Of a DNA stretch of 64,000 nucleotides, positions 7,393 through 64,000 are shown one piece after another. The position numbers and the translations under genes are program-made. The stretch comes from Bilabrum cf. latius (taxonomy: Eukaryota), in NCBI GenBank assembly GCA_965178125.1, contig OZ237740.1:806001-870000 (forward strand), given 5' to 3'. Below the pieces are notes generated by a model. That model made no database searches, was not told where the DNA came from, and saw only the letters and a list, made by a program, of their open reading frames with translations. Within the stretch, counting starts at the first letter, position 1. The number at the start of each line of letters is the position of its first letter.

Positions 7393-7594
7393 TGCGAACC
7401 AATGGTGTGTAAAGGGATGTTCATTGCAATCCGATATTTCGCAAATGTACGCTGTACAATAAAGCCGGGATCCGGCCAAGCAGAATAAAGCATTTGCAGT
7501 GCTCTCCTGCTGCGTTGGAGACTTTTGCAAGCTTTGCCAATTTTTTGTTGTAGACACTTGTGTCACATCGTACAAGCTAAACGGTTGCGGCATC

Positions 7595-13500: not shown

Positions 13501-13603
13501 GGCCTACTTTTTGGTCTCGACTGGGCGATGCGGTGGCGGGGGCGGGTCGGATGACGGGGGGTACTACGCTTCTTCGTCCCAGTACAACCAGATGCTCGAC
13601 TGA
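7595..13603 (+). CDS. Large type I membrane/surface protein (2002 aa) with repeated PPC-like beta-sandwich modules
   Basis: Single exon if TAG=Gln (in-frame TAG at 7847, 8012, 8018, 9092, 11624, 13067; stop TGA 13601). Signal peptide MRSLSVLLPFVACFGAVA; recurring DLYV/DVFV/DVEVYV strands; Pro-rich stalk; C-terminal TM helix IAGIVIGALVGVGLVGGLAYFLV; short Tyr-containing tail. Confidence 0.85.
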
Positions 13604-40800: not shown

Positions 40801-41332
40801 GTTTGCCGACGGTGTCCGTCTGACGGAAGGCCACTGGTACTACGAGGTCAAGATCCGCAACGCGGGGATGGGCTGCATTGGCTGGTCTGATTTGCGCTTC
40901 TTTGGGAAGTGGGCAAGCGACGAGGGAGTTGGTGACGACTCCGAGGGATTCTCCTGGGGGTTTGACGGTTACGCCGGAGTGATTCGGCATGGTGGGAGAT
41001 CGTGGCCGTTTCCTTTGCGGTGGAGGTCTGGGGACCACGTTGGCTGCTCTGTGAATCTGTAGACTGGAGAGGTGCGCTTCGCAATCAACGGTGCTTGGGA
41101 CGCCGCTCCGGTCGCGTTCGGTGGGCGTGACGCAGTCGGAGTCGGAGCCGCGTCGGTCGTCCATTGCATTGCTGGGGGTGGTATTGCGCTTCGGCCGGCA
41201 GTGACCTCGGATTTCAGTCAGCAGAAGGTGTTCGAGGTGCAGCTGTTGTTCAACGAGGCGGGTGACGGGCGAGAGCCTCCTGAGGAGGGCGACGATGCGT
41301 ACCTCCCAGTAGTGCTCTCCGCCGCTGTCTAA
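22809..41332 (+). CDS. Giant multidomain protein (~6098 aa): putative Cys-protease N-terminus, DUF3638/DUF3645 SF2-like P-loop module, EF-hand pair, three SPRY domains
   Basis: Introns 22900-22985 and 23262-23402, then a ~17.9-kb exon in one frame broken only by TAG; ends TAA 41330-41332. Motifs: QIMGGGKSSVIAPLL (Walker A), LLDEVD (Walker B), AVPFVGKDQPSRASEF (DUF3645-like), GFSGTP, YDQIHCTGVDLKLP, QACWRCRGL, VQEQEQEQE. EF-hands DSDGDGYVTEDE and DTNGDGYLDLRE. SPRY motifs GKWYFE, GVGDD, SWAYDG. Confidence 0.9.
34721..34903 (+). repeat. Four copies of an AAEDAFGSPVD-like peptide repeat inside the giant CDS
   Basis: AAEDAFGSPVD, AAESAFGAPVD, AAEDAFGSPVD and AAADAFGTPVV, all in frame. Confidence 0.8.
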
Positions 41333-41417
41333 TTGTCAATGATTTGTAGTCTGAAGCTTTCCTACGTTTGCAATGAAAGTATGACACAAACAGCATTCTC
41401 TAAAATCAAGGGCCGTC

Positions 41418-44400
41418 TTACTCAACGGCCGTTACAAATGAGGACGGGAACCATTTGGCTTGTTGAGGCGATGCTGCCCCACGCACAACTCCTTCCCACC
41501 AGCCCATAGCGTCACGCTGCCGAACCTCCACGATATCGCCAGCGCGCAGCCGCAGTTCTCCGCGCGGATCGTTGGGCAGCCAGTCCGCAATCGCCCTAAA
41601 CAGACCAGGCGCGCTGGTAGCATCAGTGCCTGCATCGAGAGCATTGCCAGAGTCTTCGCCGTGGTTTGGAGGGTCCTGCGCTCCAGCTGATCCGGCGGCA
41701 GCAGCGGGTTCCTTTGCAAGCGCTTCGGGTTTCTTCACAGCCTTGAGCAATCCACTGAGACTCTTCACACCACCTCTTGCGAATGGGTTGGCGGGGGCTG
41801 CCGGTTTGGCGGGCTCAGCTGGTTCAAATTGCTGCGTGTACAGTTTGTCCGTGCCCATGGTTCGAACTGTACCGTCCGTGATGACCGAGTTGCTCGACTC
41901 GTTTATATCAGATGGGGCCATGCCGCCACCACTGGCCTTACTATCAGTATGTCCGCCTGTATTGTCGGGTGCCCCCCCCTGGCTACCGCCAACTGCTGCT
42001 GCATCGAGAGCAACTTTGCCAGTATCGGACTCATAGTCGCTGCGTGAGCTGGACGCGTGCCTTCCACGGATCCGTTCGCGGTCCTCAATCCATTTTCGAC
42101 GCTTGGTTAATGGGGTGGCGAGCTTAGGCCCAGGCGAGATGGAACCTTGGCTGCTGCTGAAGCCCGTCTGCAACTGCTCTGCACTCGATGATCCATTCTA
42201 CTGAGGTTTTCGGAAGGGTTTCTATCCAGAGTCACCAGCGCCACTCGTGGACATAGACCCATCAGCGTTAGGCCCCAGCCGCGTATTGATCAGCAGGCCA
42301 CGGCGCCTGCTGCTGCTGGAGCTTGCTACCCCGCTCCCCTTCGAGCGACCAGCGCTGCTCCCACTGCTTGCTACTGACTTGGCATCATCCAGAGCCTGGG
42401 ACTTCTTGCCTTGATACGTACCGGTCAGCGCAGCAGTGATGCTCTACCGGGTCAACGCGTACTTGTTCTTTGATTTGGATCGTCGCGCGTGGCTGCGACT
42501 GCTTCGAGACATCAAGCTCCTTGCGCTACTTCCCCTGGAGCCTCCGGAGCGATGCCCACCCATCCGAGTGCGGGACCGGAAGCTCCGTGCATCGATATCC
42601 AGTCGAGAGCTACTGGCACCCCCAAGGCGCTGCATCGCCGGAGTTGGGTGCATGACAAGGGTTCGGTTGCCTTCCGCATCGACGACTTCGCCAATACCGC
42701 TTGAGGCCACTGAGGCAGCACTCCCAGCCCCCCTCGCCCGTCCAGACAGACTCCGTCCGCTGAACCCATGCACAAGCGAACGGCTCGAATCTGCATCGAT
42801 CGGCAGAACTCCATCATGGTCAGGAGAAGTCTCTGCTCTGTCATCGCGACCAACCATGGATCGCCTAGGCAGACTCATTCCGTCTTTTATGGCTGCAGGC
42901 ACACCGGAGCTGAGGGATCTACCACTGGACTGCAGCGAAACAGCCGGTTGACCGCCGCCGCCACTCTGGCTACTTCCAGCACCAAGGCTGGAAGAGGAGC
43001 CAGACGGATTTCGCGGGGGCTAACCACTGCTGTTCTGTCGCCTAGGCTCCTTATTTGTCGATGAGGGTGCATCTATTGCTCCCATGTTGTCCCTGTGCTC
43101 CTGGATCGCCTTGGACCACGTGTTGGCACGTGATACCGGACGAGGTTCCTGGCTATCGCCTCGCAATCGCTGCCTTTCAAGCTCTTGCTTCAATCGATCA
43201 AGTTCGAGAATCTCCTCTGGGGTGGCAAATCCTTCCGCGTTGCGCTTCTACAAAGCTCGCAGGCGCTGCTCCAGATCAGAATCTATCGAGCCACGAGCCG
43301 GGGTTCCTCTTCCCCTGGATGAGGAAACTGCGCTGGATGCGTCCTCTCTGCCGAGTTCGGGCATCATCCAGCGCTCCAAGGGGTTGTCAGGTGATGAGGC
43401 CTGGGACATGCGCCTAGCTGCCTCGGCTTCCAGCACAGCAGCTCTCGGAGGCACAGGGGGCGCCCGTTTGGGAGGCCCCGTTGAACCTGTCCCCTAACCG
43501 ACCTGGTCTGGATCCAAGGAGTCGCGGTGTGCCTTGCCGAGCGGCGTGCCTGCAATACCAGTAGCGTACGCAGTAGTGGTTTGCGATTCCGTTGAGCTTG
43601 CTCGATGCCTAGTTGCTACGGTGTCACCACCGAGCGACCGCACGGGCGGACCGGGTGGAGACCGCATGTCCCTACGCAGGGAAGCTAGGTCATCCATTCC
43701 TTGCAGTCTCTATCGCAAGGAAGCTTCGGCATGTGAACCTCCGCCTATTCCAGTCATCATCTGAGCAGCCAGGCCGTCAGGATCCCCTCGGACACCGAGA
43801 CCGAGGTGACCGGAACGGAGAATCGCGCTCGGGAGGTGGCTCGTGCCTAAAGGCAGCGCTAGGTCAGCTGGGGCTCTCCCGAGAATCTCAGTGAATACCT
43901 GACGGATAAGCTTCTGGTTGCCCCGTCTGGTTCGTCTGCTGCCTCCCAGCTTGCGCACGAGAGCTCTGCGCTGCTTCATCACTTGCCTCCCGACCGCCAG
44001 TACCTTCTCTAGGATCCGCATCCTCCTCCTGCGCGGCAATCCGAACCGCTTACCATCATTGTCAGATGCAGAGCCACCTTTGCTCTCCCCAGGGTCAGTC
44101 TGCGCTTCTGCTTCTTGCTTACGAGAGGTCAAGGCTGGAGACACCCCCTCCTCCTCATCATCGTCATCGGCCACCGCCGGAGATTCTCCAGTCGACGAGG
44201 CCAGGGCAGCAGCGACCTTGGATTTCTCAATCTCTTCCAAACTGGCCCTGCGTCGCTGCCTTCTCGCCTTTTCAACGGAGTCCTCATCGCTGTCATCCTC
44301 TCCATTGCCGCCAGTGTCTGTCTCCTTGCCCTCAAGCACGGCGACGGGCAGTGCAGTAGAACCACGCCTTGCTTTAGGTGGTCTGGTCTGGGACGCAGGA

Positions 44401-47400
44401 ACAGCATGCGGGTGATTTGGTTCGAATCCCGCCTCTGCATCTCTAATGGCACGCAGATACAAAGTGGCCTTCGTGGATGGAAGGTCACTTCCCGAGTCCT
44501 GTTCCCCTTGTTTGGCCTGCATCTCGTTCCTTCTGTCGCGGAGCAGCTTCACCGCGTGGAACTGGTGCAAGCCCATCAGCGAAAGGTGCCTCTGCCGCTT
44601 GTTCATGTCCTCCCAATTCACACTTCTGGCTCGGCTGCCCTGCCCTATGGCAGTAGTGCGCCTCGACATCGCCTCCACAACGACGGCCGCAAAGTCCACG
44701 TTCCGCCTGGTGGGGGGTAGTACCTAGCCTTCGAGTCTGTACGGAAGTAGCATCTTGAAGACGCAGCCTCGGCCATCCCGCCTGTAGTTATACGAAACCT
44801 CTGTTCCGATCGTGTCCGCGAGCCGGATCGCCAAGAAGAGAGAGAGCCCGTACTTGGACCGCATGTGCATGTGCTCAGGCGGTGGATCGGTGGCAGCGAG
44901 AGACTGGAGTCCGGAGAAGAGCCTTACTGCTTGGTCAGAGTCCTCTTTCTTGGACGTGTCAAGCACTTCCACCGATAGAGTTTGCGGTGCATTTGGCCAG
45001 TTCGTCACTTTCACCTGGATTGAGCCATCAGTCGTAAGCTCTGCAGAATTGGCGAGCGCCGTCGCGAGGATTCGTTCCACTCGAACTGCGTTCACCACGA
45101 TGGCCTGTGGCACCCCCTTCCCTAGATTGGCGAGGATTTTGACCTTGGCCCTGCTTCGGACGGACTCGAGTGCGTCTTGCAAAACGTGATTGATTGCCAC
45201 CAGCTCCTCTTGCCCAGCAATTTGCTTGGCTTCTTCGAGGGCTGCAGACTTGGCTGCAGCAGCCCGCATCTTTCGGTGCATCGTAGTACGCCTCACAGAG
45301 GTAGTGGACGGCAATCCACCGTCCAGCACTGATCTTCCGTCTGTCAGATCACTTTCTGTTCCCGACTCACTCGACGCATCAGATGGGTCCTTAAGCCGAC
45401 CTGCCTGGACCGGATCACCTGCCATGACCACTGTGTACGCTTGCATATCCACGACCATCTGAAGTGCGTGCATCGAGGCACTCGACAAATACATTGCATC
45501 CTCGATAGCATCATGAGATGCGTTATGGTCGGCTGAGAGCAAGTCAAGCAACCCTTGGGACACATTGGCAACACCATGCAGCGGATTCACGAGCTGCTCG
45601 CAGATGACTCGAAGAGAGCGCTTATATCCACGCACTGCGATGGCTGCTGCTGCGAGGTACTCTTGCCATTTGTTCAAAGCCAGCTTGGCTTGTATGTCCT
45701 CCCCGACATCGCGTTCATAGCCGACAAGCCGTACGAATGAGGGATCGACGCGTGACTTCGAGCCAAACATCTTCGCGGCAGCATCATCGGACGAGCTGCT
45801 GGCTTTCCCACCGTGGTCACTCTTCCTGCCGCCTGGCGTCTGCTAGCCGTCAAGCTCCGAAATGCTTCCCATAGGTGTCGCAATGCCTCCGGACGCAGCG
45901 GCCCTGTCGTCCATGTAGACTACAGTTCCGCAGAACTCGACCCAACAAAATGACAGATCTTTCCTCTGCCTCCGGAACTGCAGCGATACCTTGTCCCGTC
46001 GCGCCTTGAACGCAGCTCTGAGCTTAGACCGGATGCTGGAGCGGTCCGCGGGGTGCACCCCACGAATGCCTCCCATCCCGAGATGCCGGGTCTGTTTGGC
46101 ACCCGTGCCAGATGGTGACCCTGCGTCGGTCGCTTCCTCGGGAAGACCGATGCCGAGAACGAATCGCTTCTTGCCGCGAGATGCAGTCGGCGTGCGAGCC
46201 ATCGGGGTCTTGCCCTTCTCCCGCGATCTGCCCTTGCGAAATTTCGATCCATGGCTCGCCACGCTACCAGGGGTTACGGGCTAGATCTATGAAGCGGAGG
46301 GCACGACATCAGAGGAGCTGTTTCCACCGGAACCGCCCGGCCCGTAGCTGGTCGATCGGAGACTAGGTCCACGCGTCTCGCTGTCAGATCCCGACAAGGA
46401 CATCGCCGTCATGACTCGGCCAGCAACTACTGAGCTGCTGCCACCTCTTCCTGCACCATTCGACGACGACTACCCCGCGCCTCCTGACGAGAATCCTTCC
46501 CATGCATCAAGAGACCAAAGCCCGTGAGCATTCACAACTGGCAATTCCTTGCCTAGTAGCTCCATCGGAGTGTACCCAGTTAGCGGCTGTGTCGCGCCAG
46601 CAACGCTGCGCATCGCAAACCTGCCATCATAGACGCACAGCATCGTTGGGGAGTAGGACAAGAGAGCGTCAACCGCACGAGCAAGCAATTTATCGCCTCC
46701 CATGGAAACCCGTGGCGACGAATTCTGGTCTGACCCAGACCCGGACTGAGCAGGATGATGCCGCCCTGGCGTAATATTGCCAAAGGTGGATTCCTACTGA
46801 CCACGGGATAGCTCCGACACACTCGTCACAGAAGCTAACGACGGGTTGCTGGAGATAGCTGCTCTTGCAGGCTGCTGCTCCTGACCATGTGCTTTCTCGT
46901 CTGCCGGCGCGGTCTGATGCGCGCTAGCTGCAGTAGCATTGCCGCTGGGGCGCTGCTTCGGAGTTGGCAGCGGTGGCTTGTCCACAGCCAGCAGCTAAGG
47001 CTCCGTGGTTAGCCTGCCGCGCCCTGCGAATACAGCACGTGGCTGTCCATTGTGAACCAGCTGCCTTTCCGATGCTGACCGGTGGAATGACTGCACTGCC
47101 ACGCCCGCAGGCATTTTGCCCCCATCGCGACTCCGTGGGTTCGCGCTAGTGTCGCTGCCAGCACCTTTGACGTCGCTCTCCCGCATAGACAGCGATTCTC
47201 GAATACTTTTGGGGGTTTGGGCGTTTCCAGTCAGGTCCAAGCCCTCTGTCATGCTGTCGCTACCTGTACGCAGGGTTCTGATACCGAGATTGGGATACAA
47301 ATTCTGGAGAGAACCAGAACCGTGGTGCAGCACGGGAGAATATGCGGAGGGTGGCAGAAGCGATCTGCCGTGGGAGCGACGGTACATCTCGCCGATGTTG

Positions 47401-50400
47401 AGCAGCGGGCCGACAGGGCTACCTGGAGTTGCCTGAGAGGAAGGACGGGCCGAGTCACCTTCAGCGTGCCCGGTCGTGTCTTTGGATTGAGTTGACATGA
47501 TAAAATCTTGCTTGCCACCGGTCCGCGCGTTCCGCTCAGTGGGCAAGGCAGCAGCGTCACCCACGGTCAGTGCACCGTGCACAGCCCCAACCAGCAGCGC
47601 AGAGTGAAGCCACACGTCCACCAATGACACCATAGTCCATCGCACGAACATGGTTGCGACCAAAACGCCGAGCCGCGGCAACGCCAACACTATCCAGAAG
47701 CGAAAGGCCGTTGCCGTGGTACTGAGGCTGTTGACAAAGTCAGCGCCAACGGACTCGGACAGACCGTCATCGCCCGACAGAATCTAGAGAGAGACAACTG
47801 AAAACCCCTCTTTTCCTGCGACACAATCAGAACATGATCCATTTCGATTGCCAGTCAGGTAGCCAACTGCACGTTCTGTCGCTACATCCTGCGACTAGGC
47901 AGTACCCCACGCCGAGTGAGGGACAGACTTTGCAACCGAAACATGCGGAAAATGCTGTTGAATCACCGCCAAAGGACCGAATGCTAATATCAAGCCTTGC
48001 AACATGACAGCAAGGAGAACACCAGCAATAATGAGCCCGCTTCCCTGCATGCCAAGACATGACATCGTGCGGCTGTCGACAGGCGCCTCTGTTCGTGGCC
48101 TCAGCGACAGATGTACCCAATCTGCTGCAAGGCTTGCGATAATGAGCAAAAATCCCGTACAAGTAGCGAGATAAATGCCGCTAGTAGTGCTGACAAACAT
48201 CGGATCCGAAGCGCTTGAAGCTAGTGCGAGCGGAGACGAGCACATCGAGGGGTCGCCTTTGCCCTGCATTGCCGACGAGCACGGGTGCAGCAACCGCGTG
48301 ACTGTCCCAGCCATCAATGGCACCAAACTTAGCAGCAATAAACCGAGCCAGACCAACGATGGAGACCACACCACGGGCCCGCTGTGAGGACGTGGTGATG
48401 AAGGCTTGCTTGTAACCAAATACTGCTCCTCAGAGTCGTGCCCCCCTGCTGTTCCAAGCATCATCGACTCCTGGCTCTCATGCCTGGATGCGACTACCTC
48501 CTGGTGTTGGGGCCTTGGAAAGTCTCGAAAGGCCAGAGCAACGGCACCGCCAGCGGCATCACTAGGTATGCCAGTTGCGGTAGCGATTTCGTGGGTACCA
48601 GCGTGCCCCGGGACGGTGTCCACGTAATCGCTGGACTGCTTGGCTGCTATCGATCCCCCTTGGTACTGCCTGGCTCCGTCAAACTCCGGCTTGACGTAGG
48701 TGTGTCTGCTGCCTTGACATCTGCACTAGCAACACGCTCCAAGTGCGGCAGATATTAAACAAAGCAACACGCAAGAGACAGACACGACTGTGGCTGCCAG
48801 CAAGCTGGTGTGTCGATCACCAGCACTCCCAAGCGCAGCTTCAGGGATTCCAAATACCAGTAGCAGCAGGGCATCAGATACCAATACCACTGCTGACAGC
48901 ACAGCTACGGCAAGGACGACTTGCTACAGCATTGCTCGCTCGATACCTTGCACAGCTAGCAAGCCTAGGTGGCTCGTCGCTGCCCTAGCCTGCGAGGCCC
49001 AACCGTAGTCAATCTTTCGTGCCAATTGAATGCTCCCTAGAACCAAATCAAGCAGCCCTGCTGTAGAGAACTCGTTTGCCAAGCGAGCAGCATCTGCAGA
49101 AGCGGCAACTTCTGCCACGTTGAGCTGTGGTACCTGAGCGTCTGCCGCTGATGCATCCAACCCTACCGCAGAGACGTCCCCATCTTGGCTTTCCTGCATC
49201 CCCCCTAGTCTTGCACTGGGAGAACCATCCTGCTCATCAAAACTGGATCCCGCTGTGACGTTCTCCTCCGTGGACAGTCGGCCGTGCTACTACCCAACGA
49301 TGGTCACAGGGATGCCTTCTTGCAGGGCAGGAAGCACCTTACGCAGCTCGCCGGCCGACGTCTCCTCCCTCGACGCATTCAGAACGTCCGGTTCATTGGT
49401 CGTGCCGTCAGTATCGTACATCCCTTTGTTTCTGTGCATGTCTGACAGGATTCGATGCGGTGTCAGTCCTCCTTGCTTGCTCGGTATGGTCCTTGCACCA
49501 CTCTGTGCCTTGTCTTGCGAGGCGCCGGAGTTCTCCCCAGAGCCACCGCTGCTTCCCAGCGAACTGCTCTTCATCTTTGTCTCTGCACTGCCTGAGCCTT
49601 CAAAGGACGGGTTGAAACGCTTCGCCAAACCGACGTAGAGCCCTTCTGCGGCTGCATCCGCCTGCACCTCGCTAAAGGTAAGGCCTGCTTCGCCCCTGTT
49701 GTGATCCGTTGCTCGCTGCATGTGCCCTCCAGGCATCGTGGATGGCAACAGCATTGACTGCTCTGATCTTGCTGTACCGACTCGGCTGCCACCAAACCTT
49801 GAAGACATGTCACCGGCGGTGGAAAAGGAATCCAGCGACTCAGGGCGATACCCGGGCTAGTCGGTATGCATGTCCTGTTCTGTGCCCGCTGGCACATCCT
49901 CGCTAGCGTTCAGGCGACCCGGAATTTGCAGCTGAGCTGCAGTGCTGGTATGACCAGCCCTCATCCCTGCCATCGAGCCTCTGCCTGTGCTGCCTACAGG
50001 CAAGGTGAGGTAAGAGCTAGTGTCGCTCTGCAGCCGCCTGCGATTCCCGAGCTCATCGTCGATCGAGGCAGAGCCAGTGGAAGGAGTGTATCCTGCCTGC
50101 ATGCCCGCTGGAGAATCAAAATCTGAGGATTGTGCCATGGCTTGTCGCTGCGGTGCTGCAGACACCATGACGAGGGCGCTCATGCCAGCCGCGTGCTGCG
50201 TCCTCGAATGGTGCCTCGGGCGGGTGGCAGGCGAAAGACCCGGGCTAGGATGCGGATAGGACGGAGCAGATTCCTCCATTGACTGATCTGTTCGGGGCCT
50301 GCGGCTCGATGGGGCGCTGTCTTGCCTCGACCGATGCGTGGTGCCCCCCCCGCTTTGCTGCGGCGGCGCCGAAATAGACCCATCTCTTGCGCTCTCAATG

Positions 50401-51086
50401 CGACTTCGATCGTCGGATGCTCGACCATCTTCTGCGTGCCTTTCACTTTCAGGGGAGCCGATCCGGCGCGGCAAGACTAGTTGTGTGAGGTCGCTGGCGC
50501 TATCTGAGCGTTGATCATCGTGCCGCCCGCGGCTCCCGCGTGCTGCAAGTCGTTGAACCTGCGCAGCTGGTGCCAGGCTCCGACTAGATCGATCCAGTTT
50601 GGATCGCTATCCTGTTGCAAACTATCGAGCACTCTCAATCGCAGCTTGCAAAGCTATGGAGTTGCCAGTTCTACTTCTGAATGAGCCGTTCGTATAGAAA
50701 GACTTGCTCTCTTGGTTTGTTGCTTGCGATCGAACGCTGCCAGACTGATCGAGCCGAGCCCGACTTTCAACCGAGGAAGATTTCTAGGCAGATCCCGTGT
50801 CTGCGCGTGGTTCGTCGTTCTAATTGGGCTCGTGCGACGCTGCACCACCACTTTCGGCCTGGTCCGCAATAGCGTCTGCGGTACCGATATCACGGCCCAA
50901 TCCATCCTGCTGGTGAATGTTTGATGCAGGACGACTATCTGAAGCCTCTTGAGGACTTGTGTGCTGCTTAGAGGTCGTAGTCTTCGGAGTTGAAGGAATC
51001 AGGCTGGGCCTTTGCACCTTCTTCTCTAGAAACCGCTCAGTCCTGTCAAGGAAAGAAGATATTGACGAGCGTTTCTCAAGACTCAT
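41418..51086 (-). CDS. Multi-TM, PAS, degenerate histidine-kinase and C-terminal SH3 protein (~3222 aa)
   Basis: The minus-strand ORF fragments ending at 41418, 42444, 43248, 43494, 43710, 44724, 45843, 46470, 46794, 46995, 47895, 48924, 49290, 49857 and 50820 share one frame; the gaps I read contained only TAG. Several TM segments (~47550-49050), PAS-like LTGYTPMELLGK, HisKA/HATPase-like fold (44724-45700) and SH3 FRAIADW...ELRLRAGDIVEV...GWWEG...WFPSSFV, then TAA. Confidence 0.8.
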
Positions 51087-51525
51087 TGTGTTGATTATTG
51101 TGGAAGCATTAACTATCTTTCTTGCTAGCTATGCAGTGCAGAGCAAGGCAGGTTCCGCTACCACGTTTGCGCCGCCGGCGTCGACTGAACGAACATGGTC
51201 GCATTGCTCGGCAACAACCGTTTCATGGTCCCACATGCACTTTAGCACACAATGATGTCACTATGATATCACGGAGCCGCAGCACGCGCCCGTGTCATGC
51301 CTCTGGAACTTGAACAGTCAATGTGACTGTCCAAGGGACCTCCCTCCCTCCCTCCCTCCCTACCCCAACAATGGACCCGATTCACGACAAGGCGCTGATA
51401 TTATGGTCCACTCAAACCTCAAGGCAAGCATTTCTACCTGCATCTAGGAAAGAAATACAGGATGCTTGAAACTTAATGAAGGCACTGCTTGGCGGCAACG
51501 CACCAGGCGCCTAATAAAGGTGATG

Positions 51526-52235: not shown

Positions 52236-52881
52236 TCATTCGCCGAGCAGGTCGAAATCGTCGAGCTTGTCGTTGTACTTTTGCACGGTCCTCTTGATCT
52301 TCGACGTGTCCACCCATGTCACGTAATCCTCAAGAAGCCGAGTAACCATGTACGCAGGATCGGTCACCACCTCTGGCCCGACGCGCACGTGACCACCCTC
52401 AATAAGCGTGACAGCAGCTTTCATGTTCTCAGCCATCTTGAGCCGAACCAATACGGTGGACAGCCGTCGCCGGCAGAAGGCCGATACGCTTACTTTGTCA
52501 GCTTTCGACAGACTCTTCGTCTAATCAACTAGACCCATTGTGTACAATTTGTCCAGAAGTGCGTCAGTGGTTTGGATCCTGAACTTGCTGTCTGCATTCA
52601 GTTTTCGCAGTTTTCGCGATATTCTGGTCACAAGTCCAACCAACTTGTTGTACCTGCGTAAATGGCAAGATTATGGTTGTCGGATTAAGATGAGCACGAT
52701 TGTATTTTATTATTTACACCCCAGGCGCCATAATTCCTCACTTTACATAATCTTCCCTGTCTTGGATGAGATACCGCCTTAGTACCTGTACCTCCCGCAG
52801 ATTCTTGTCACTTTTCCATTGGAAGAAATCAACCTTCTTTAACAAGCGCTTCTCATGGTGTTTTAGCTTTCGGCTTGCCAT
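52236..52881 (-). CDS. IMP3: U3 snoRNP protein IMP3
   Basis: [20 protein letters not shown]...[19 protein letters not shown]...SAFCRRRL...[19 protein letters not shown]...DDFDLL. Intron 52654-52741. In-frame TAG at 52521-52523 (GLVD-TAG-TKSL). Stop TGA. Confidence 0.95.
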
Positions 52882-53218
52882 TGCAAGCCTGTTTGTGTGG
52901 CTCTTGCAGCTGTACTCCGCGATGGCAGCACAACTCGAAATCCGCACGTTACTTCGTGCTCGACGCCTTGTGGCCGGATGCTCGGGCGGCTACTAGGTTG
53001 CAGAGCAAATGAGAAGCGCTTCTATCAAACAAATTTAGTTTGTGTTACGGGTAGACCGTGGCTGTGCAGGTCCATGTTCATCAAAGCACGTATGTACAAT
53101 GTCCCACCCACTACCTCGCGAACGGCACAGGGTGGCCTTGCAGGCCACCAACAAGCTAGCGTGGCTGGATGCCCGTGGATCATCCAGTTCACAGCAATTC
53201 ATCCGATTCCGCGGGTAC

Positions 53219-53794
53219 TCATTTCTTGGCGTTCTTGTCCACGTAAAAATTCCTGGTTGCCATCGGCAACTGCACCCGGATGCCATCCAGCGCCGTGGTC
53301 AAGAACACTTGGCAGCCTAATCGTGACGTTTCAGTAAGTCCAGGCGCCATATCAAGCATGTCATCCTCTTCCTCGCACGCTTCTGGCAGGCTATCGAACA
53401 CATCCTCATCCAGTATGACGTGGCACGTGCTGCACGCAATCGACCCTTCGCACGCACCTTCCATCTCAATTCCGTGTCTATGAGCAACCGATAGCAGATC
53501 TTGACCCTCTCTTGCTACAACATCGTGCTCTTTCCCGTCAGAGTATACAAAGGTTACCTTCACCGGAGGCTTGCTCGTATCCTCTGCAAAACAAGCCAAA
53601 GAGAGCGGTACCGGCGACCATCAAGAAATCACTGGCTGCATTGCGCTCATTAAAATTAGGATAAGCTTACCAGGACCATGACCGTGCCATCGCACTTGCT
53701 GCATGTGCAACGACAGCGCCGATTGCAAAGAGCTTCGCCATCTCAAAATATCTGTGGCTGCCGCCATCCGCCTACATCGCATGGCTGCCCGCAT
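53219..53794 (-). CDS. Mitochondrial-type [2Fe-2S] ferredoxin (adrenodoxin/Yah1 family)
   Basis: GACEGSIACSTCHV...EDDMLD...SRLGCQ. Arg/Ala-rich transit-like exon 1; intron 53584-53670; stop TGA. Several nearby ATGs could be the start. Confidence 0.93.
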
Positions 53795-53978: not shown

Positions 53979-55068
53979 ATGGTAAAGTCGAACAGAGCTC
54001 TTCGATAGTTGGCGCATGCTGCCACCAAGCTTGGACCAAGGCGGATCATGCGCTTAAGTCCCGAGTTTGCGCCGCAGACTACCCAATGTGTAGCCGATAC
54101 GTTTGGACGAGCAGATTCAGAGGACCCATTTGCATGGTGAGACAGTAAAAAATGTTCTGCTGAGCTGAAGGGGGCTCTTGTCTTCGTGATGCAGGCGATT
54201 CACGGCAGGATGCACCATTGATGCTTGCGAGAATACTTCCGAACGCAGGTGCATGAACCTGAGAAAGCATCACTGGCATTCAATGGCGGGCATGTTTATA
54301 GACCGCGCGGCACTGGAGGCAGACCCATTATCCGTGATTTGCTACAACGAGTGAGACGCGTTGTTGGCGTCCGTTTGCTGGTGCGACGGCGACTTGTCTT
54401 GTGGCCCTCCTTCACGAGCGAGCCCTGGCGAATTTTGTCCGCCGGGCAAGATACTGGAGCTGGTACACATGGTCTCATTGCTTGTTTTGCGTTCGTTGCT
54501 TGGCGTGCACCCTCCTGCCCAGAGGCTGGCCTATTCTCGCCTCGTGTGCCACATGTTGACCGCCGCCAGCTTTGGTTGTCCCCTCCGGCGCAGCGAAACG
54601 GATACTGTGGAAGGAGTCATGATTAACGAGGACCTGAGGACGAACCCGCCGATCTAGTACAAGACGCTCCCATCCGACTGGAGCCCGGTGCGAGCCATCT
54701 TCAACCGTGCTAGGATGCGGTTCCTTGCGAATCACAACGGCTACATCGAGCCAGGCATGGTGATGCACACCCTGTATTTCACCTGCGTGCGACCGGAAGC
54801 CAGGTAGCAGGGAGTGATGAAGGCCATGTGGGAGGAGACCGTGCGGGCAGCGGAGGAGCAGAATTTCCAGCGCATCGCGGCCACTGCTTCCTCTGGGCAG
54901 GTGAGGGGCGTGCTCGAGGACAACCTGGGTTTCTGGCCCGTGTCGGAGGTCTCATTCGACGAGTTTAAGTTCCAAGGGCAGCATATATTTAAGGAGATCA
55001 CCGAGCGGGATCCAGAGCATGCTCGCCTGGTGATGCTCGAGCGCAAGGTGAACAGCAACATGTACTGA
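53979..55068 (+). CDS. GNAT-family N-acetyltransferase
   Basis: With introns 54137-54248 (alternative acceptor 54194) and 54351-54593 the frame reads DPFAW/CMNL...ICYND/ETDTVEGVMINEDL...YFTCVRPEAR(TAG)QGVMKAMW...LGFWPV. In-frame TAG at 54006, 54655 and 54805; stop TGA. The start could instead be ATG 53841. Confidence 0.7.
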
Positions 55069-55295: not shown

Positions 55296-58200
55296 ATGTC
55301 CAACACCGTATTTGGCGCAGCTGCCGACAACGATGTTGCGAGGCTGCAGGAGCTCTTGGGGTCTGACTCTTTTCGCGATTGTCCTGATCGGTCTGGGTGC
55401 ACGCCTTTGCATATCTCCGGTAAGCGCCGTGCTGCAACTGCCTGTTGTTTCGGCCAATTGGCGACGGGTACGCGACCACACCCGCACCCTGCAGCCAAGA
55501 TGAATTCCTTGAATATGCTGTACGCGCGCATTCACTCTGGTATTCATAGTTTAGCATGTGGACTCTGATACCGCAGCAACCTACGGTGCGCGAGAGGCGG
55601 CGGAAGCACTCGTAGCCATGGGCGCCTGCGTGAACGCTGCTGACTTGGAAAACTTGTGGACTCCAATGCATCGCGCTGTTTACTTTGGCTGCTATGGTGT
55701 GGCCGCGATGTTGGCATTCAAAGGGGCGAAGACGTCACTGCCGGACAAGGATGGTGTATCGCCGGAGGCATTGCTGACCAGGCGTTGCACACATTATTTG
55801 GACGCCGTTCGAGTGAGAGGTATACGGCGTATGCTCGCCCGGGTGTCACCGTACGGCTTGGAGGGTGCCGAGCTGCGAGAATCGCGATGGCTGCCTGCTG
55901 CACTTGCTGGCGTAGATTTCTGCGATCACCCTGCGTTGCGAGCCCTCAAAATGAGAATACGCCGCCCAGGCTATGACTGTTCTGCTCCAGCCGTACCGGG
56001 TGGAGACCTCGTAGACAGCCAGACTTTGACACGTAATCGGTTGCGGCGCGGCTCGGCGGCCTCTAGCCGCAGCCGATTCTCCTCCGCAGCTCTCTCTGGG
56101 ACGGGGCGTGCGCTTGGGCATGAGATCGGGCACCGAAGAGGAGCTGGTAGTCGTTCTGGTAGTGGAGGCGGCAGCCGGAAGGGGTCCGGTGCCGGCCGGC
56201 GCGAGTCGTTCGGGGAGGTCCTCTTAGGGGGTCAGGGCCGGTCTGGATCAGCGAGCGGGGTGTCTTCCGCTGGCGGGCGCGGGAGCTTCGACGCGCTACG
56301 AGCCGGGAGTGGTGCCGCAGAACCGTCTTGGCTGCTCGATGAGGACGGAGAGGGCGGGGGTCTGGCGGAGAAAGCCAAGAGGGCAGATGCGATCGGCAGG
56401 TCTTCCGATGAAACAGCGGGGTACAGCACCATGCTGCTGGCGTGGGGCAGGCACAATCTGCTTTCGATGTCCAGGGGAAACTCGCAATTCAAGCCTACCC
56501 TGCTTTCAGGGAGCAGCTTTGCGCTGCATGGCAGGCGGGTCGACTGCGTGTCTGCGGGCAGAGCGCACACTCTCGCTCTGTGCAGCGATGGCGCGGTGTT
56601 CGCCTGGGGCACAGGCAGCAGGGGCAGGCTAGGAACAGGGAACAAGAGGGACGCTCCAGCGCCGGTGGAGCTGAGGGACTTGCGACAGGCCAACGTGTTT
56701 GCCGTGTCGGCAGGCGGGGAGCACAGCCTGGCCCTATCCGGCAACGGAAGCGTGCTGGCATGGGGAGCCGACCAGTACGGGCAGCTGGGCCGGGGGGCTG
56801 GGGCGAGCCGGTCGGATCAGCTGGTGCCAAGACGGTTGTAGGGGACCATGCGAAAGGTCAAGTTTGCCTCGGTGTCCGCCGGAGAGCGCCACAGCCTGTT
56901 CGTGGCCGTGGACGGGAGGGCCTGGGCCGCCGGCGACAACGGGTCCAACCAGTGCGGGCCTTCCGACTTTGACACGGCAGCATCCTTGTAGAAGGGAGAC
57001 AGGTCAGCCAGCAGCAGGAAGAAGAGCAGGTCAGGGTCTGCGTCAGAAGCAACGAGTTGCTGCTTGGCACCGCGTAGGATCGACGAGACCATCCGGCTGC
57101 ATTCCACCGGCGGCCACAGGAGGCGTAACGAAGCGTTTGGTGCCTCTGTGGATCGTCCGGGTGAAGGCGCGGTGCAGGTGAGGCAGGCAGCTGCTGGTAA
57201 TGACCACACCGTGGTGCTCACGCACAAGGCAGAGGTGTGGGAGCTTGGATTTGGGCGGCCGCCACGCCGAGTGGTGCTCGACAAGCAGGCGGCCCGAGAC
57301 CATGACATCCGTAGGGCGTTTGAGTGGTTCCAACCCAGGCCAACGACCACTACGGAGCTGCTGGCCGATTCAGATCGCCGATCGGGGTTCAAGCGGACGC
57401 TGCGCCTCGGGGATACAATTGTGAGGAGGCAAGCCTCCGGGGCTGGCTCTGCCAGGCGGCAAACCAAGGGCAAGTCCAAGCACAGCAAGGGCAAGAAGGG
57501 GAGAGGCAGTGGCAGGGTGCCCGCCTCACCCGGTGCAGGCGCTTAGGGCAGTCCCCACCGGCGGGCCCAGGCGTCACCGCACATGACTGGCTCCCAAGCA
57601 GTATCACCTATCCCGCCCATGGCATTGCCAGCGGCTCGAGGCCAGTCAGTACCGAGCATGCAGAGCGGTCCTGTGAGCTCAGGTAGCGCCGCTGCTGCCG
57701 GCGCAGGGCCTGCATCCACGCTCGAGAGGTTTCTGAGCGGGTCAAGCGACGGGTGGCAGCGCAGCACGGGCGAGACAGCCATGGCACTGGCGGTGTGCGC
57801 CGGTAGGAAGCACTCTGCTGCGATCGACAGCGATGGCAGGGTCTGGACATGGGGAGCCCCTGGACCATGGCTTGGGCACGGCAGCGGCAAATCCAAGAAG
57901 AGGAGCGGTAAAAAGAAAGGAAGAGGCAGGGACCGGCCCCAGGATGGCGACTTAGGCGCTGTGGTTAAGTCCCTGTGGGCGCCCAGCGGCGTCGGTCAAG
58001 ACATGGCTGCATGTGCCGAGGACGCTGCAGCGGTCGCAGGGAGTACCAATGGGCCCATCTTGGCAAGGCGGATCTACCACCCTGCTATGGACAGCCGCAA
58101 TGTCGTGAGCGTCGCCGCGGGAGACACGCACACCGTGGCGGCTACAAGAGATGGCGTTGTCTTCGTGTGGGGCACGGGAGAGTCGGGCAGCCTCGGGCTG

Positions 58201-61200
58201 GGCACCGATATGCAGTTGGTTGGGCGGCCCACGAGGGTTCCCGGCGTTGTTCGCGTAGCTAGTGTTGCAGCTGGCCCGTCACACTCCATTGCGCTGACGG
58301 CGCTGTCAACCCCGTCCATCGTGCGACCGAAAGCCCCTACCTTACAGGAAATGGAGGCTGAGCGCGATGAGGTTCGTCGCGCGGTCAGGCATGTTCGCTT
58401 CGAGGAGCTCGCTGACACGTTTGGGATTGTTGCGGCAGAGGCGTGGCTGCAATAGGATCAGACAGCCGAAGAGGTGGCCGATCTAACTGGCCGTGGCGAT
58501 GCTTCCGAAACGAGCGCTGCTGCAGCTGGCGCACATGCCGATATCTAGCTGCCTGCTGGTGGTGCTCTAGAGCACGCTCTCCTGCAGGGGCTCGCCGGTG
58601 CAGTGGCAGGGCCTGCTGGGGTGGAATCGAAAGAGGATCGCTCGATGTTTAGAACTTCAGACTCCAGCGACGGCAGCTCAACAGACGAAGACCCCGACGT
58701 TTCAGCTGGACTAGACACCAGTATCGTGTCTCAGAGCGACGCCATCGAGACCAGTGATGCTGGTGCACCACAAGCGGCTCATAAGGCAGCGAGAACATGG
58801 TCAGCGCAAGTAGTTGGAGGCACGGCCATTCTGCGAGGCCCTGGCACGATATAGGCGGTTGCGTCCCTATCCTCCCTGGCTCAAGCTGCCGCTAGCAGGT
58901 GCGTAGGGCTGGAAGGCGCGGCGCCAGTCATGGCAATCGCCGAGCAGCTCGGCGCCTCACAGCTGGCCGCAGCATGTGGGGAGTACATTGCGCAAAATGC
59001 CGACTTTGTGCTGCTGTCATCCACCAGCTTAGCGCAGAAGGCGCGCGCGGCTCTAGCAGAAGACGGGAGCAGCTTGCTTGGCGGACGATGGACGTCTGAG
59101 GAGGAGCGAGAGTCCTTCAAGACACAGCGACGGTTGAAGCACGCTGAGATCCGAAGGAGATACAAGGCCATGGTATTGCAGGAGCAGGCGCTAGCATCCA
59201 CACCAGAAGGTCAGGCAGCCATGCTTGCAAAGCTGCACCCAGACTGGGAAGGCGGCGAGGACGGGCAGTGGGCCTGGGGCCGAAGCGGAGGTGGTGGTGT
59301 CCGGCCGGATGGTATCAGTGCCACGATAGGAACCGCCGCACCTTTCGGTCCCGGAGAGGATGAAGACGATCTTGGAGTCTCGAGTGGCGATGAGGCAGCT
59401 GGGTCGGGTTCAGCGAGCGCCGGCTAGGCCCCCCGCTTCGACCCGCTAGCCAGACCCCCCGATCCCCTGAAGGCCACGCAGCAGGACGAAATGGCTGCAA
59501 GAGTGCCCACCAGGACGGTGGATGGCACTCGGCCAGTGATGCTTCCTGCCCTAGGGCGAGTGTCCCAGTTCTTGGTTGGGCTGGAGGCCTCTGCACCGCC
59601 TGCTGTGCGGGCCGTGGTGGCTCGTGCTCTGCACCTGGACCGGTCTGCCACAGAGGAGCTCAGCCTGTACCAGCAAGATCACGCAGAGGCCCTAGCGAGG
59701 TCTCTGGAGGAGGCCAATGGAGGTGCTGCTGCTGGCACCAGCACGCGGTCGCAAGTGCTGGGGCAGCCAAGCGCAAGGTCGCAGGTGCTTTCATCGCTGC
59801 CGTCTGACGTCGCGTTCGACCTGATGCGGCTCGTTCGAAGGACCAAGGTCCTTCGTAGGCGGCTGTTGCGGTGGACGGAGAGTGCAGTTGTGGAGGCTGA
59901 ATCGCACGCGCTCCGCCAAAGTGGCCGAGCTGGGGCGGCCGACCTGCTGCAAGCACGAGCAGATTCCGCTGGGCTTGGTCGGAAGAGGACGGCCCGCAGC
60001 AGCAGCAAGGGCACTGGTACTGCCCAGGGGAGGAGCCTGGATGCAAAGCGCCGGTGGATGGTGCATTCAGAGCTGTGGATGCTGGCTCCAGTCATCCGCA
60101 GAGTGGACGCTGTGCTTCGAGCCCTGCTTCGCGAGGCTGGGGTGCAGACCAGCGATCTGGGTGGAGACCCAGCGGACGAGGACGACGCGGCGGATGCTGC
60201 GGGGCCTGTATTTGGGTCGAGAAGGGGGGGGCGGGGGTTGGCCGCGAGAGGTGCGCGCATCATGTTTGCCGAAGATGCGATGGAGCGCGCAGTACAGGCT
60301 GCGAACGACACGGCGGGGCACAGCGCTGGTCTGATTGCAAGAGCAATCTGGCACTCGGCTCGCGCCGTGGACGGGTTCGAGCGTCTGGGCACTCGAGGCC
60401 TTGGCGAGTGGGCGTTTGCAAGGCCTGACAAGAACGAGGACGAAAGCGGTGCTCAGTCGCGGGGTGCAGCTCGTCTGGTGGACCAGGACCTGGAGTCTGC
60501 CATTGGCATGAAGCAGCCCAGGCGGGTGGTTGGCTATGCCGCAGTGCGAGGAATGAGGGCGCTGAGATCGAAGGCTGCGCTGCGGCCAGAAGAGCTTCGC
60601 ACCGTTGCGAGCCCAGCGGCTGCATCGAGGGCGCAAGATGAATCCAGCCGAGCCGCAGCTTCGGATGCTTCTTGCGGCATTGCCACCCAGCCTGTTGTCA
60701 TACCTGCGACTGGCAGCGCAGCGGGCGGTAAGGCAGCCGGCAGTGCGGATCCTTCCAAGGTGTAGTTGGACAGGAGCAAGGCCCCCGCAGGGGTGCACCA
60801 TGGATCTCGATCTCAAGCTGCCGGGGCAGATTTGGAGCCCACACCGATCGCACCATCGCAGGCTGCGGCTTCCGCTGGCACGCCGAAGGCAGCAGCAGGC
60901 TCCGAGCCCAGCTCGAAGGCAGGAGCAGGCTCCGAGCCCAGCTCGAGGACCTCCAAGAAACGCAACAAGAGAAAGCGCGGCAAGAAGAGGAAAGTGTCCC
61001 ACGATGGCGGTGCCGGCGCCCTTGGCCAGCTCATGGATCCACTGCTGGGCAAAGGGAGCCTAGTCCACGCTCCTGCTCCTTCTCCTTCCCCTTCTCCTGC
61101 ACCATCGCCCCAAGGAAAACAGCGAGCGTCCATGGGAACAGCCGGCATCGATGCAATTCCCCGCAGCCCATTGCTGGCTGGCCATCCCCGGGGTGCGGCT

Positions 61201-62160
61201 GCAGACTCCAGCCTTGCAGCGCTTGCCCCCAAGTCCGCCATCGCGAAGGCCCCAGGTGCAGTGCCTGCCGCCTCGCCGCCCCCGCGACCGGCCGCCGGGC
61301 CCTCGGACCTTTTTAGCCTCATGGAGGCAGAAAAGCGCAGGTCCGAAGCCCAGAGGGAAGCAGACCTGGCTGCCGCGCGACTGGCCGCGATGGAGGACGC
61401 GAGAAAGCTAGCTGCAGAATAGGAGGAGAAGGCGCAGCGCGCGGCGCGCGGCTCAGCTTGGGGGGCTGCTGGGGGTGGCCGCGGCGGGTCTGGACCTCGG
61501 CCATTGGACGAGATCATGCAAGCCGAGAAGATTGCCTCACGGCACCGCGGTGGCCAGCGCGCAGGAGCCTCTCACGCTGGGCTTGGCAGCAGCATGAGCA
61601 AACCACCGGTGCCGGTGTCTTCGCCATGGGGTTCCCGCAAGGTGGTTGCAAGCCCCGTCTTGGCACCTTCACGACCGCCCCAAAGTACCAAGTGGGGCAC
61701 TACCACGAGAGGTGCCCGGCCCGTTGCAGTGACCGCCTCCATGCTGGGCGGCAGCGCAGCTCTAGGCAGGCAGGAGGAAGATACTGGTGGGCAGGTGGGG
61801 GCATCGGCAGGGGGCGTCTTCAGCCTGGAGGCACAGCTGGCTCAGGCCAAGAAGGAGCAGTCGCGGGAGGAGGAGGCCAGGCTGGCAGCGGCCAGGGAAC
61901 AGGCGCAGCTCGAGGCAGCACTGGCTGCTTCTATGCAGTCGGGAGACGTGGCCTACTAGCAGGCTGCTGGTGGCTCTCGCGGTGGATATCCTCCAAGGGG
62001 AGGTGGGAGCAAGGGTAGTAGGCGCGGCGGCGGGCGGGGTCGTGGCAGGGGAGCGGGTCGGGGTCGGGGAGGGGGAGGGGGCGGGCGTGGGAGGTCGGGC
62101 GGGAGAGGGCGCGGTGGAGGTGGAGGCCGGGGCAATGCGCGCGGTGGGCGGCGCCAGTGA
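55296..62160 (+). CDS. IBTK/Btb1-like ankyrin plus RCC1-repeat protein with a BACK-like helix, UIM-like motif and RGG tail
   Basis: Ankyrin motifs GCTPLHIS/AT and LWTPMHRAVYFG. RCC1 repeats VSAGRAHTLAL...VFAWGTGSRGRLG, VSAGGEHSLAL, VAAGDTHTVA. LGASQLAAACGEYIAQN; QLEAALAASMQ; RGG-rich end. Intron 55420-55576. In-frame TAG at 56839, 56989, 57544, 58453, 58852, 59425, 60763, 61420, 61957; stop TGA 62158-62160. Confidence 0.82.
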
Positions 62161-62327
62161 CGAAAGTAATACTCGCCAACGAAGTTAGCGCGAGCAAAAG
62201 GGGCTGCTGAGACCCCGTCCGTCCAAGCCATGATGGGTAGAAATGTTGATCCGGATGAAGCCCAAAAGATAGACATTGCAGGACACCTACAGTGGTGAAC
62301 GGAAATTCATTAGTGCTTGCAGATCAC

Positions 62328-63969
62328 TCACATGCCAGCGCCAGAGGCCGCGCCTCCGCCCGCCTTGCTAGTAAGAGGTCGCACTTCGACCGTCTTACCG
62401 CTCGTGATCTTGCCCCAGCCGATGAGCCTCCAATGCTTGTCAACTTGCCTGCTCAGGGCGATCTTGTCCCCGGGCTCTGCGCACACTGGCAGCGTTAATG
62501 TCAGGGTGGCGATGTCACCCCTGACCTTGCCAACCCTGCCCGTGGTGCTCTTGGACCCGACATTGACCATGAGGCTCTCCTTCCTCTCCAGCTTGCGGAT
62601 CTTCTGGTCCGTGCCCTCACCGGCGCGCACTCCCAGCAATCGTCGCAGCAGGTGGTACTGCACCTGAATTTCCTCGTAAACCATGGGCAGGTTGCCCCTG
62701 TGCCCCAGGACGTGGCCCACAAGCCTATCTGCCCGGGTGAGGGTGGGGTCAATGCTGGTTCCCACTCCGATGAGGCCGCCCGGCACGGCGTACTGCAGCT
62801 TGTTGGTCTCCGCCTTGAGATCCGTGACGGTGCTAAAAATCGGGGAGCACACGTTCTGCTTGGTGGCGGGGTCCCTTCGCACCAGCCCGGGGAGGATCTC
62901 GATCTCGTCGCCCAGCTTGAGGACCCCCCTGAGGATGGACCCTCCCGCCACGCCTCCCTCCATGTCTTCGATCTTGTGCCCCGGTCTGTTCACGTCGAAG
63001 GATCGAATGACGATCATCCTGGGGCTGTTGGTGAAGTCTCTCACGGGGAGAGGAACCTTCCTCGCGAGGTACTCGCAGACCAGGTCCACGTTGTACCCTA
63101 GCTGGGCCGAGACGGGCAGGATGGGGGCGTTCTCGGCCACACCTCCGTCCAAAAAGGCCTTGATCTGCTGGTACTGCTCCTTGGCCTGGTCTCGGCTGAC
63201 GATATCGACCTTGTTCTGCAGCACGATGATCTTGTCCAGCTGCATGATCTCCACCGCTGCCAGGTGCTCTTGGGTCTGGGGCTATGGGCAAGGCTCGTTG
63301 GCAGCGATGAGCAGGATGGCGGCGTCCATCACGGCTGCTCCGTTCAGCATGGTTGCCATGAGAATGTCGTGGCCCGGGCAATCGACAAAGGAAATGTGCC
63401 GCACCAGCTGCATGGTTCTGCCCGTGCCGTCTTCCATGGGATACTCATCAGGGGAATTACTTCGACCAGAGGCGTAGACGTACGGCGGTGCGCTCGACCT
63501 GTAAATCTTCGCATTAGCGTAGCCAAGCTTGATAGTAATGTTCTGAGCCAACTCATCCTTGAACTTCACGGTCTTCACACCCGACAGAGCCTTCACAGTG
63601 GTGCTCTTGCCGTGCGCTACGTGACCTACGGTTCCGATGTTGATGGTTGCCTATCTCGAGATGATCTCGGGGGTCAGTGGTGTGAGAGATTCGACCTTGA
63701 GCCCCTCCAATGACTGCTCTTTCATGCCCTGCAGGAGATCAAATGGGAGGCAACAAGGGTGCGAGAAACAAGACTTGAACCGGTGCAGTTCTGCCAGAAC
63801 GAGGGACAGGGACAGTACTGGGAGCCTAGGCCAAAGCATAGCAACCCATGCCATTGCTTACCTCTCCAGTAGGCATCGGGGGCCCCTTTGCAGACCAAGG
63901 GTGAAGTTTCTCCGCGTCAAAGTCGGGTGCACGAACACCTCCTGCCCCACTGGCGGCCCCACTGCCCAT
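62328..63969 (-). CDS. EIF2S3: Eukaryotic translation initiation factor 2 gamma subunit
   Basis: ISR(TAG)[21 protein letters not shown]...[13 protein letters not shown]...[20 protein letters not shown]...ANEPCP(TAG)[13 protein letters not shown]...QNKVD...HWRLIGWG. Exons 63862-63969 and 62328-63728; stop TGA. Confidence 0.98.
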
Positions 63970-64000
63970 CGACGACTTCAAAACGCTCTTTGGGGACTCA

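Follow-up and report, generated by a model that had tools for sequence, protein, structure and literature searches.

In nuclear genetic codes UAG and UAA nearly always change together. Codes in which UAG alone has been reassigned are few (PMC11687900), and each further UAG-only code tests ideas on the co-evolution of eRF1 and suppressor tRNAs. UAG alone stands for Gln, with UAA and UGA kept as stops, in Iotanema spirale, Protocruzia tuzeti, Hartmannula sinica and Trochilia petrani (PMC5304391, PMC11687900), the last two being phyllopharyngean ciliates. These sources describe UAA as the primary stop codon of Iotanema spirale (PMC5304391) and place it at 93.5-100% of the aligned C-termini of these ciliates (PMC11687900).

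The window analysed here, that is, the whole stretch of 64,000 nucleotides, carries at its right end a minus-strand gene for eIF2-gamma in which two Gln codons are written as TAG. It is very probable that the source organism reads TAG as Gln, with TAA and TGA as stops, and that both TAGs are ordinary codons for Gln in a gene that is functional and expressed. Such a code resembles NCBI table 15; the features of that table found in the window are in-frame TAGs in conserved genes, TAGs on Gln columns, and exchange between TAG and Gln codons in relatives.

The eIF2-gamma gene and its two TAG codons

The gene, all of it on the minus strand, ends in a long exon (62328-63728) of 466 codons plus a TGA stop (62330-62328), whose translation is the protein P0001. 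It is preceded by a phase 0 intron of 133 nt with GT..AG borders (63729-63861), which is skipped by contigs of the sequencing runs X5 and X6, and by a first exon (63862-64000) in which the first ATG (63969-63967) lies 36 codons from the splice site. The frame of the first exon is open up to the end of the window, the ATG at 63969 being a provisional start, and the X5 contig extends 54 nt past the window end at this gene. On the other side, a 3' UTR of about 32 nt (62296-62327) leads up to an apparent poly(A) site, where the X5 contig ends.

GTPases carry the motifs G1 (GHVxHGKS), G3 (DxPGH) and G4 (NKxD). All three are present in P0001: the G1 motif or P-loop reads GHVAHGKST (63600-63626), the G3 motif DCPGH (63369-63383) and the G4 motif NKVD (63204-63215), each on the minus strand. 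Three Pfam domains, GTP_EFTU (92.6 bits), GTP_EFTU_D2 (36.8 bits) and eIF2_C (106.9 bits), score above their curated cut-offs. Among PDB chains, residues 3-448 of P0001 align with residues 16-466 of human EIF2S3 at E 7.6e-190, and the yeast Gcd11 chain 3j81_k is matched at E 2.9e-172. This is a typical eukaryotic eIF2-gamma, which shares with human EIF2S3 the three Pfam domains, the G1, G3 and G4 motifs and an end-to-end alignment. It is unlike human EIF2S3, yeast Gcd11 and archaeal aIF2-gamma in that two of its Gln codons are TAG. A separate peculiarity is that the zinc knuckle lacks its Cys cluster (63440-63500, minus strand; residues 77-96 of P0001). Fewer than three Cys residues are found at the zinc knuckle in 47 of 116 homologues as well, and P0001 has the short 'SSAPPYVY' form of this region in common with its nearest environmental homologues.

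The first in-frame TAG (63651-63653, minus strand) encodes residue 26 of P0001, just before the P-loop, and is set in the minus-strand context ATC TCG AGA TAG GCA ACC ATC AAC ATC GGA ACC GTA GGT CAC GTA GCG CAC GGC AAG AGC ACC. The second (63282-63284, minus strand) encodes residue 149, within CP-Q-PQT between G3 and G4, in the context GAG CCT TGC CCA TAG CCC CAG ACC. Both codons lie in one frame, which extends from 63728 as far as the TGA (62330-62328). Human EIF2S3 (PDB chains) has Q at each position without any gap (isrQatinigt and cpQpqt). Both columns are Q in 116/116 database homologues; these are what is left of 121 proteins after removal of the query, of the chimeric or duplicated rows P0002 and P0004, and of two close relatives that were counted apart, and they include the fission-yeast protein P0116. 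Both columns are also Q in 80/80 metagenome or metatranscriptome loci among the matches listed (at least 80 exist); all of these loci are only 59-66% identical to the window gene. Their codons are CAG in 45 and CAA in 35 cases at the first site, and CAG in 48 and CAA in 32 at the second; the set of 116 homologues and that of 80 loci may have members in common. Among the 466 columns of the eIF2-gamma alignment just 6 are at least 99% Q, and the chance that two randomly placed codons both fall on such columns is p ~1.7e-4.

A first-pass annotation of this DNA had proposed that two conserved Gln residues of eIF2-gamma are encoded by TAG in a gene that is otherwise intact. The peptides that it quoted around the two codons, a stretch of 23 letters and CP-TAG-PQT, agree exactly with the minus-strand translation. 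Its Gln consensus is borne out at both sites by human EIF2S3, by the 116/116 homologues and by the 80/80 environmental loci listed. Of the sequences that it had named for alignment, human EIF2S3 aligns ungapped with Q at both columns, and the yeast Gcd11 chain is matched at the E value given above. The rest of the gene is indeed intact.

TAG, TAA and TGA across the window

Under the standard stops, no ORF of the 64-kb window is longer than 850 codons. Once TAG is treated as a sense codon, ORFs of 5994, 3279, 2215, 2046, 1316 and 1158 codons appear; adding TAA as a further sense codon makes them barely longer (5994 becomes 6132, and 3279 becomes 3283). Nine ORFs with 17,701 codons hold 109 in-frame TAGs versus 563 CAG and 193 CAA, and TAG would supply 12.6% of the Gln codons in these nine ORFs. 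The count of in-frame TAA is zero, versus about 37 expected from the CAA/CAG ratio if TAA were also Gln. Every large gene in the window has an in-frame TAG, and the in-frame TAG is a genome-wide property of the organism, not one that is local to eIF2-gamma.

The largest of these genes is a DUF3638/DUF3645/EF-hand/SPRY ORF (23348-41332, plus strand) of 5994 codons with 37 in-frame TAGs and a TAA end. It contains three SPRY domains and a pair of EF-hands, Pfam matches are absent from its first 3000 residues, and its homologues reach 7876 residues. The 3279-codon PAS ORF with a C-terminal SH3 domain (41418-51257, minus strand) has 26 in-frame TAGs and also ends in TAA. The ankyrin/RCC1-repeat ORF (55513-62160, plus strand; 2215 codons), which is convergent with eIF2-gamma, has 11 in-frame TAGs and ends in TGA.

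A 1200-residue stretch of the DUF3638 protein matched 6442 proteins at E <=0.001, and 150 representatives of the 6442 were aligned. In this alignment of 150 of 6442, three TAG columns are strongly Q, with Q in 100/103, 114/131 and 104/114 rows. Two further columns are mixed, site 126 with M in 40, Q in 37 and F in 33 rows and site 946 with E in 68 and Q in 45 of 145 rows, and sites 154, 572, 773 and 1194 lie in gapped or variable columns. Among the 150 of 6442 matches, no TAG site of this protein falls on a column conserved for a residue other than Q. When column log-likelihoods are summed over the 9 TAG columns that have 50 residues or more, Q leads Ala, the runner-up, by 38 natural-log units. 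In the profile of their majority residues, the TAG columns are like those of CAG and CAA, and not like those of GAG, TTG, AAG, TAC, TCG or TGG. IMP3 has a lone TAG, opposite which human and yeast have Thr; the stretch is variable and the site uninformative.

Several other genes of the window deserve a brief description. Its left end (3-1064, plus strand) codes for the C-terminal portion of a histidine kinase of the hybrid type, with HATPase_c and receiver domains. A glutathionyl-hydroquinone reductase of the GST Xi type (4836-5876, minus strand) has no TAG, a GC3 of 0.80 and a TAA end; its best solved match is 4uss_A (E 2.9e-101), far ahead of the fungal one from Trametes versicolor and the other solved chains. 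The 2046-codon ORF (7463-13603, plus strand; GC3 0.84) is without a Pfam match, seems by eye to have a signal-like segment at its N terminus and a membrane span at its C terminus, and has only 6 TAGs among its ~107 Gln codons. Between 51300 and 55500 there is a stretch of lower GC (0.54-0.56) with small housekeeping genes on the minus strand. They are IMP3 (52236-52670), which has a further exon upstream in the interval 52738-53034, and a 2Fe-2S ferredoxin resembling adrenodoxin (53219-53620), which was named by eye. A GNAT-like ORF on the plus strand (54355-55068), likewise named by eye, has no PDB match.

Thirteen genes of the window end in TGA (10) or TAA (3), and 0/13 visibly in TAG; ORF limits were set with TAG read as sense in this small sample of 13, so TAG ends of lineage-specific genes could be hidden in the count. 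In conserved genes, the TGA or TAA end agrees with the end of the homologues. The TAA of the GST Xi gene comes 10 residues past an alignment that extends to position 322 in a PDB homologue of 325 residues, and the TGA of IMP3 comes 3 residues past the last aligned position. In the 3-1064 ORF, one TAG falls within the region matched by Pfam Response_reg and precedes the TGA by 17 codons. Genes are packed very tightly in this genome: only 85 nt (41333-41417) separate the TAA stops of the convergent 5994- and 3279-codon genes, and from the stop of the RCC1 gene to that of eIF2-gamma there are only 167 nt. Readthrough of the TAA of the 5994-codon ORF would run antisense into the convergent gene 85 nt away. 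Within the window, TAA is not a sense codon, given that it barely extends the ORFs and ends three genes, one of which was checked against the C-terminus of a homologue. TGA terminates, as seen from the 10/13 gene ends, the poly(A) trace 32 nt after the TGA of eIF2-gamma, and the end of IMP3.

Transcript-like contigs, close relatives and rival explanations

Of the 24 sequencing runs listed for the eIF2-gamma region, 0 are on record as RNA; X5, X6, X8 and X10 were compared in detail, and X1-X4 contain every sampled word of the region. X5 and X6, which belong to two studies other than that of the best holder, have one contig each that skips exactly the 133-nt intron (joint 63727/63861). In X5 this contig ends at 62296 and is followed by 23 T (plus strand), a run that is read as a poly(A) trace and begins 32 nt after the TGA. 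The X5 and X6 contigs have 0 differences from the window over 62296/62313-63727, so both TAGs are kept in them; the word depth of these intron-less contigs is 281 in X5 and 62.6 in X6. Their reading as mRNA rests on the splice joint and the T run, the kinds of run being guessed (X5 as 'probably DNA'; an RNA nature of X5, X6 and X7 is likewise a guess), and contigs drop rare variants.

X8 and X10 contain a relative that is ~95% identical in DNA, with 78 differences over 1708 bases. The 40 listed of those 78 comprise 38 third-position changes, 1 synonymous first-position change (TTG to CTG) and 1 change of K to R, which is also present in P0003, the eIF2-gamma of a close relative. As nearly all listed differences are synonymous, eIF2-gamma is under purifying selection. 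Further contigs of X5, X8 and X10 match short conserved pieces of the G domain only (62980-63408), at <90% identity; they probably come from a GTPase or eIF2-gamma of another organism, and these samples seem to be mixtures.

Database proteins from close relatives carry the imprint of the same TAGs. P0185 stops just before a window TAG and P0274 just before a TAG-TAG pair, and P0003, P0220 and P0276 start at the first start codon past a window TAG. Since the relatives' gene calls break at window TAGs, they were made with TAG as a stop, and the residues that they place opposite a TAG come from standard codons. Calls at >=86% identity have Q at 5/5 of the window TAG sites that they span, namely residue 149 of eIF2-gamma (P0003, P0005, P0122), site 572 of the DUF3638 protein (P0220) and sites 467, 1158 and 2670 of the 3279-codon PAS ORF (P0274, P0276, P0279). 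At those five sites the relatives would have CAG or CAA codons, as deduced from their proteins; a search for close-relative DNA in viral contigs found none. P0278, a distant relative (58% identity), has Ala at site 2516 of the PAS ORF. All four eIF2-gamma calls from close relatives (P0003, P0005, P0122 and P0123) are N-terminally truncated, and none is full-length and TAG-free. Separately, P0122, P0123 and P0005 (~93% identity) start at differing internal positions of eIF2-gamma, at residues 98, 124 and ~192. These starts suggest that in-frame stops lie at different positions in different relatives, through turnover between TAG and CAR codons. The first-pass annotation had held the two eIF2-gamma sites to be the most direct evidence for Gln. 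They do speak for Gln, and 'most' is too strong: they are 2 of at least 109 in-frame TAGs, and the TAG-to-Q replacements in close relatives are judged equally direct.

Could the TAGs be sense codons for something other than Gln, such as Glu, Leu, Tyr, Ser, Lys, Trp or pyrrolysine? Nuclear codes with UAG as Leu and with UAG as Ser exist (PMC5304391, PMC11687900), and E is the commonest residue at DUF3638 site 946 (68/145 rows). Yet the five strongly conserved TAG columns of eIF2-gamma and the DUF3638 protein are all Q, the replacements in relatives are Q in 5/5 cases, all non-Q residues are worse by >=38 ln units, and the TAG columns have a profile like those of CAG and CAA, which makes another amino acid very unlikely; Leu, Glu and Tyr, which the first-pass annotation had already dismissed, fall to the likelihood difference and to the conserved columns. 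An ambiguous code, in which TAG is sense and yet also a terminator in some genes, has a small chance of being true. The TAG inside the Response_reg match 17 codons before the stop argues against it, as do the conserved genes that end at TGA or TAA like their homologues and the 0/13 gene ends that need TAG; on its side are the existence of such codes in a few protists, as described in the literature, and the way in which a true TAG stop of a lineage-specific gene would be masked by ORF ends called with TAG as sense.

Pseudogene, RNA editing and assembly error are poor explanations for the eIF2-gamma TAGs. If this copy were a pseudogene or silent and a TAG-free paralogue did the work, one would have to account for intron-less, T-tailed contigs that keep the TAGs at the word depths given above, for differences from the 95% relative that are nearly all synonymous, for relatives' calls (P0003, P0005, P0122, P0123) that are truncated as in-frame TAGs predict, none of them full-length and TAG-free, and for an in-frame TAG in every large gene of the window; this explanation is highly improbable. 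It is just as improbable that the TAGs are edited to CAG in RNA by U-to-C changes or are errors of assembly: no evidence in support of either was found, and the same letters occur in contigs of three studies, with 0 differences in the spliced X5 and X6 contigs. The reading of TAG as Gln in eIF2-gamma, which the first-pass annotation put forward, is upheld by invariant Gln columns, purifying selection and spliced contigs that retain the TAGs, and the rest of the window and the relatives concur with it.

Most probably the DNA is nuclear and its source a eukaryote rich in GC (~60%), densely packed with genes and poor in introns, with TAG as a sense codon for Gln, TGA as the main stop and TAA as a further terminator. 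By analogy with other stop-to-Gln codes, UAG would be read by a tRNA-Gln, probably with a CUA anticodon, and eRF1 would be blind to UAG and still recognise UAA and UGA. ARAGORN found no tRNA genes in the window, and Rfam gave no match in the window.

Placement and comparison with known codes

No named protein is more than 68% identical to the window eIF2-gamma, and the best match of NCBI source is 67% identical. In a FastTree tree of 44 eIF2-gamma sequences, the window gene groups with environmental sequences and falls outside named opisthokonts, red and green algae, and a raphidophyte. The environmental relatives of the window reach ~95% identity in DNA and 93% in the eIF2-gamma protein. A dinoflagellate spliced-leader motif was found in 0/80 of the environmental loci listed. 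In the open-access literature, no description of a GC-rich non-ciliate with UAG as Gln was found. The kind of code is already known, and the lineage that carries it is apparently undescribed in the searchable open-access literature. Tentatively, and with slightly less than even confidence, we suggest that the window belongs to an undescribed GC-rich, compact lineage that independently reassigned UAG alone to Gln, uncoupled from UAA, with UGA as its main stop.

If true, reassignment of UAG alone, which is rare, would have arisen independently once more, and in a base composition opposite to that of the ciliate cases. A GC-rich lineage in which UGA is the main stop would sit badly with the usual picture of such changes, that of AT pressure combined with UAA-dominated termination. 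There is also a practical side. Gene callers that use the standard code fragment the genes of this lineage, as seen in P0003, P0185, P0220 and P0274-P0279, so that only a table with TAG as Gln will keep genomes and metagenomes with this lineage from being mis-annotated.

Among described nuclear codes, those with UAG as Leu (rhizarian exLh, some ciliate MAGs) and with UAG as Ser (Scotinosphaera) are like the code of the window in that UAG alone is reassigned, uncoupled from UAA; they differ from it in the amino acid, which is Gln here. The UAR=Gln codes (table 6) of many ciliates, Hexamita, ulvophycean algae, Streblomastix and Amoeboaphelidium protococcarum share the change of UAG to Gln with the window. 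In table 6 codes TAA is Gln as well, whereas the window has 0 in-frame TAAs against 109 TAGs, and three genes that end in TAA. For Amoeboaphelidium, both TAG and TAA are reported to be Gln (PMC5304391, PMC6299283), and its genomes have ~40% GC (Table 1, PMC10608142). An aphelid source, Amoeboaphelidium, was considered and rejected on the grounds of base composition (~40% versus ~60% GC), of TAA being a stop here, and of the lack of a close NCBI protein. The nearest likeness is to Iotanema spirale, Protocruzia tuzeti and the two phyllopharyngean ciliates, in which UAG alone has likewise become Gln with UAA kept as a terminator. The window differs from these UAG=Gln codes in its stops and in its composition, for TGA ends 10 of its 13 genes and its DNA is ~60% GC.
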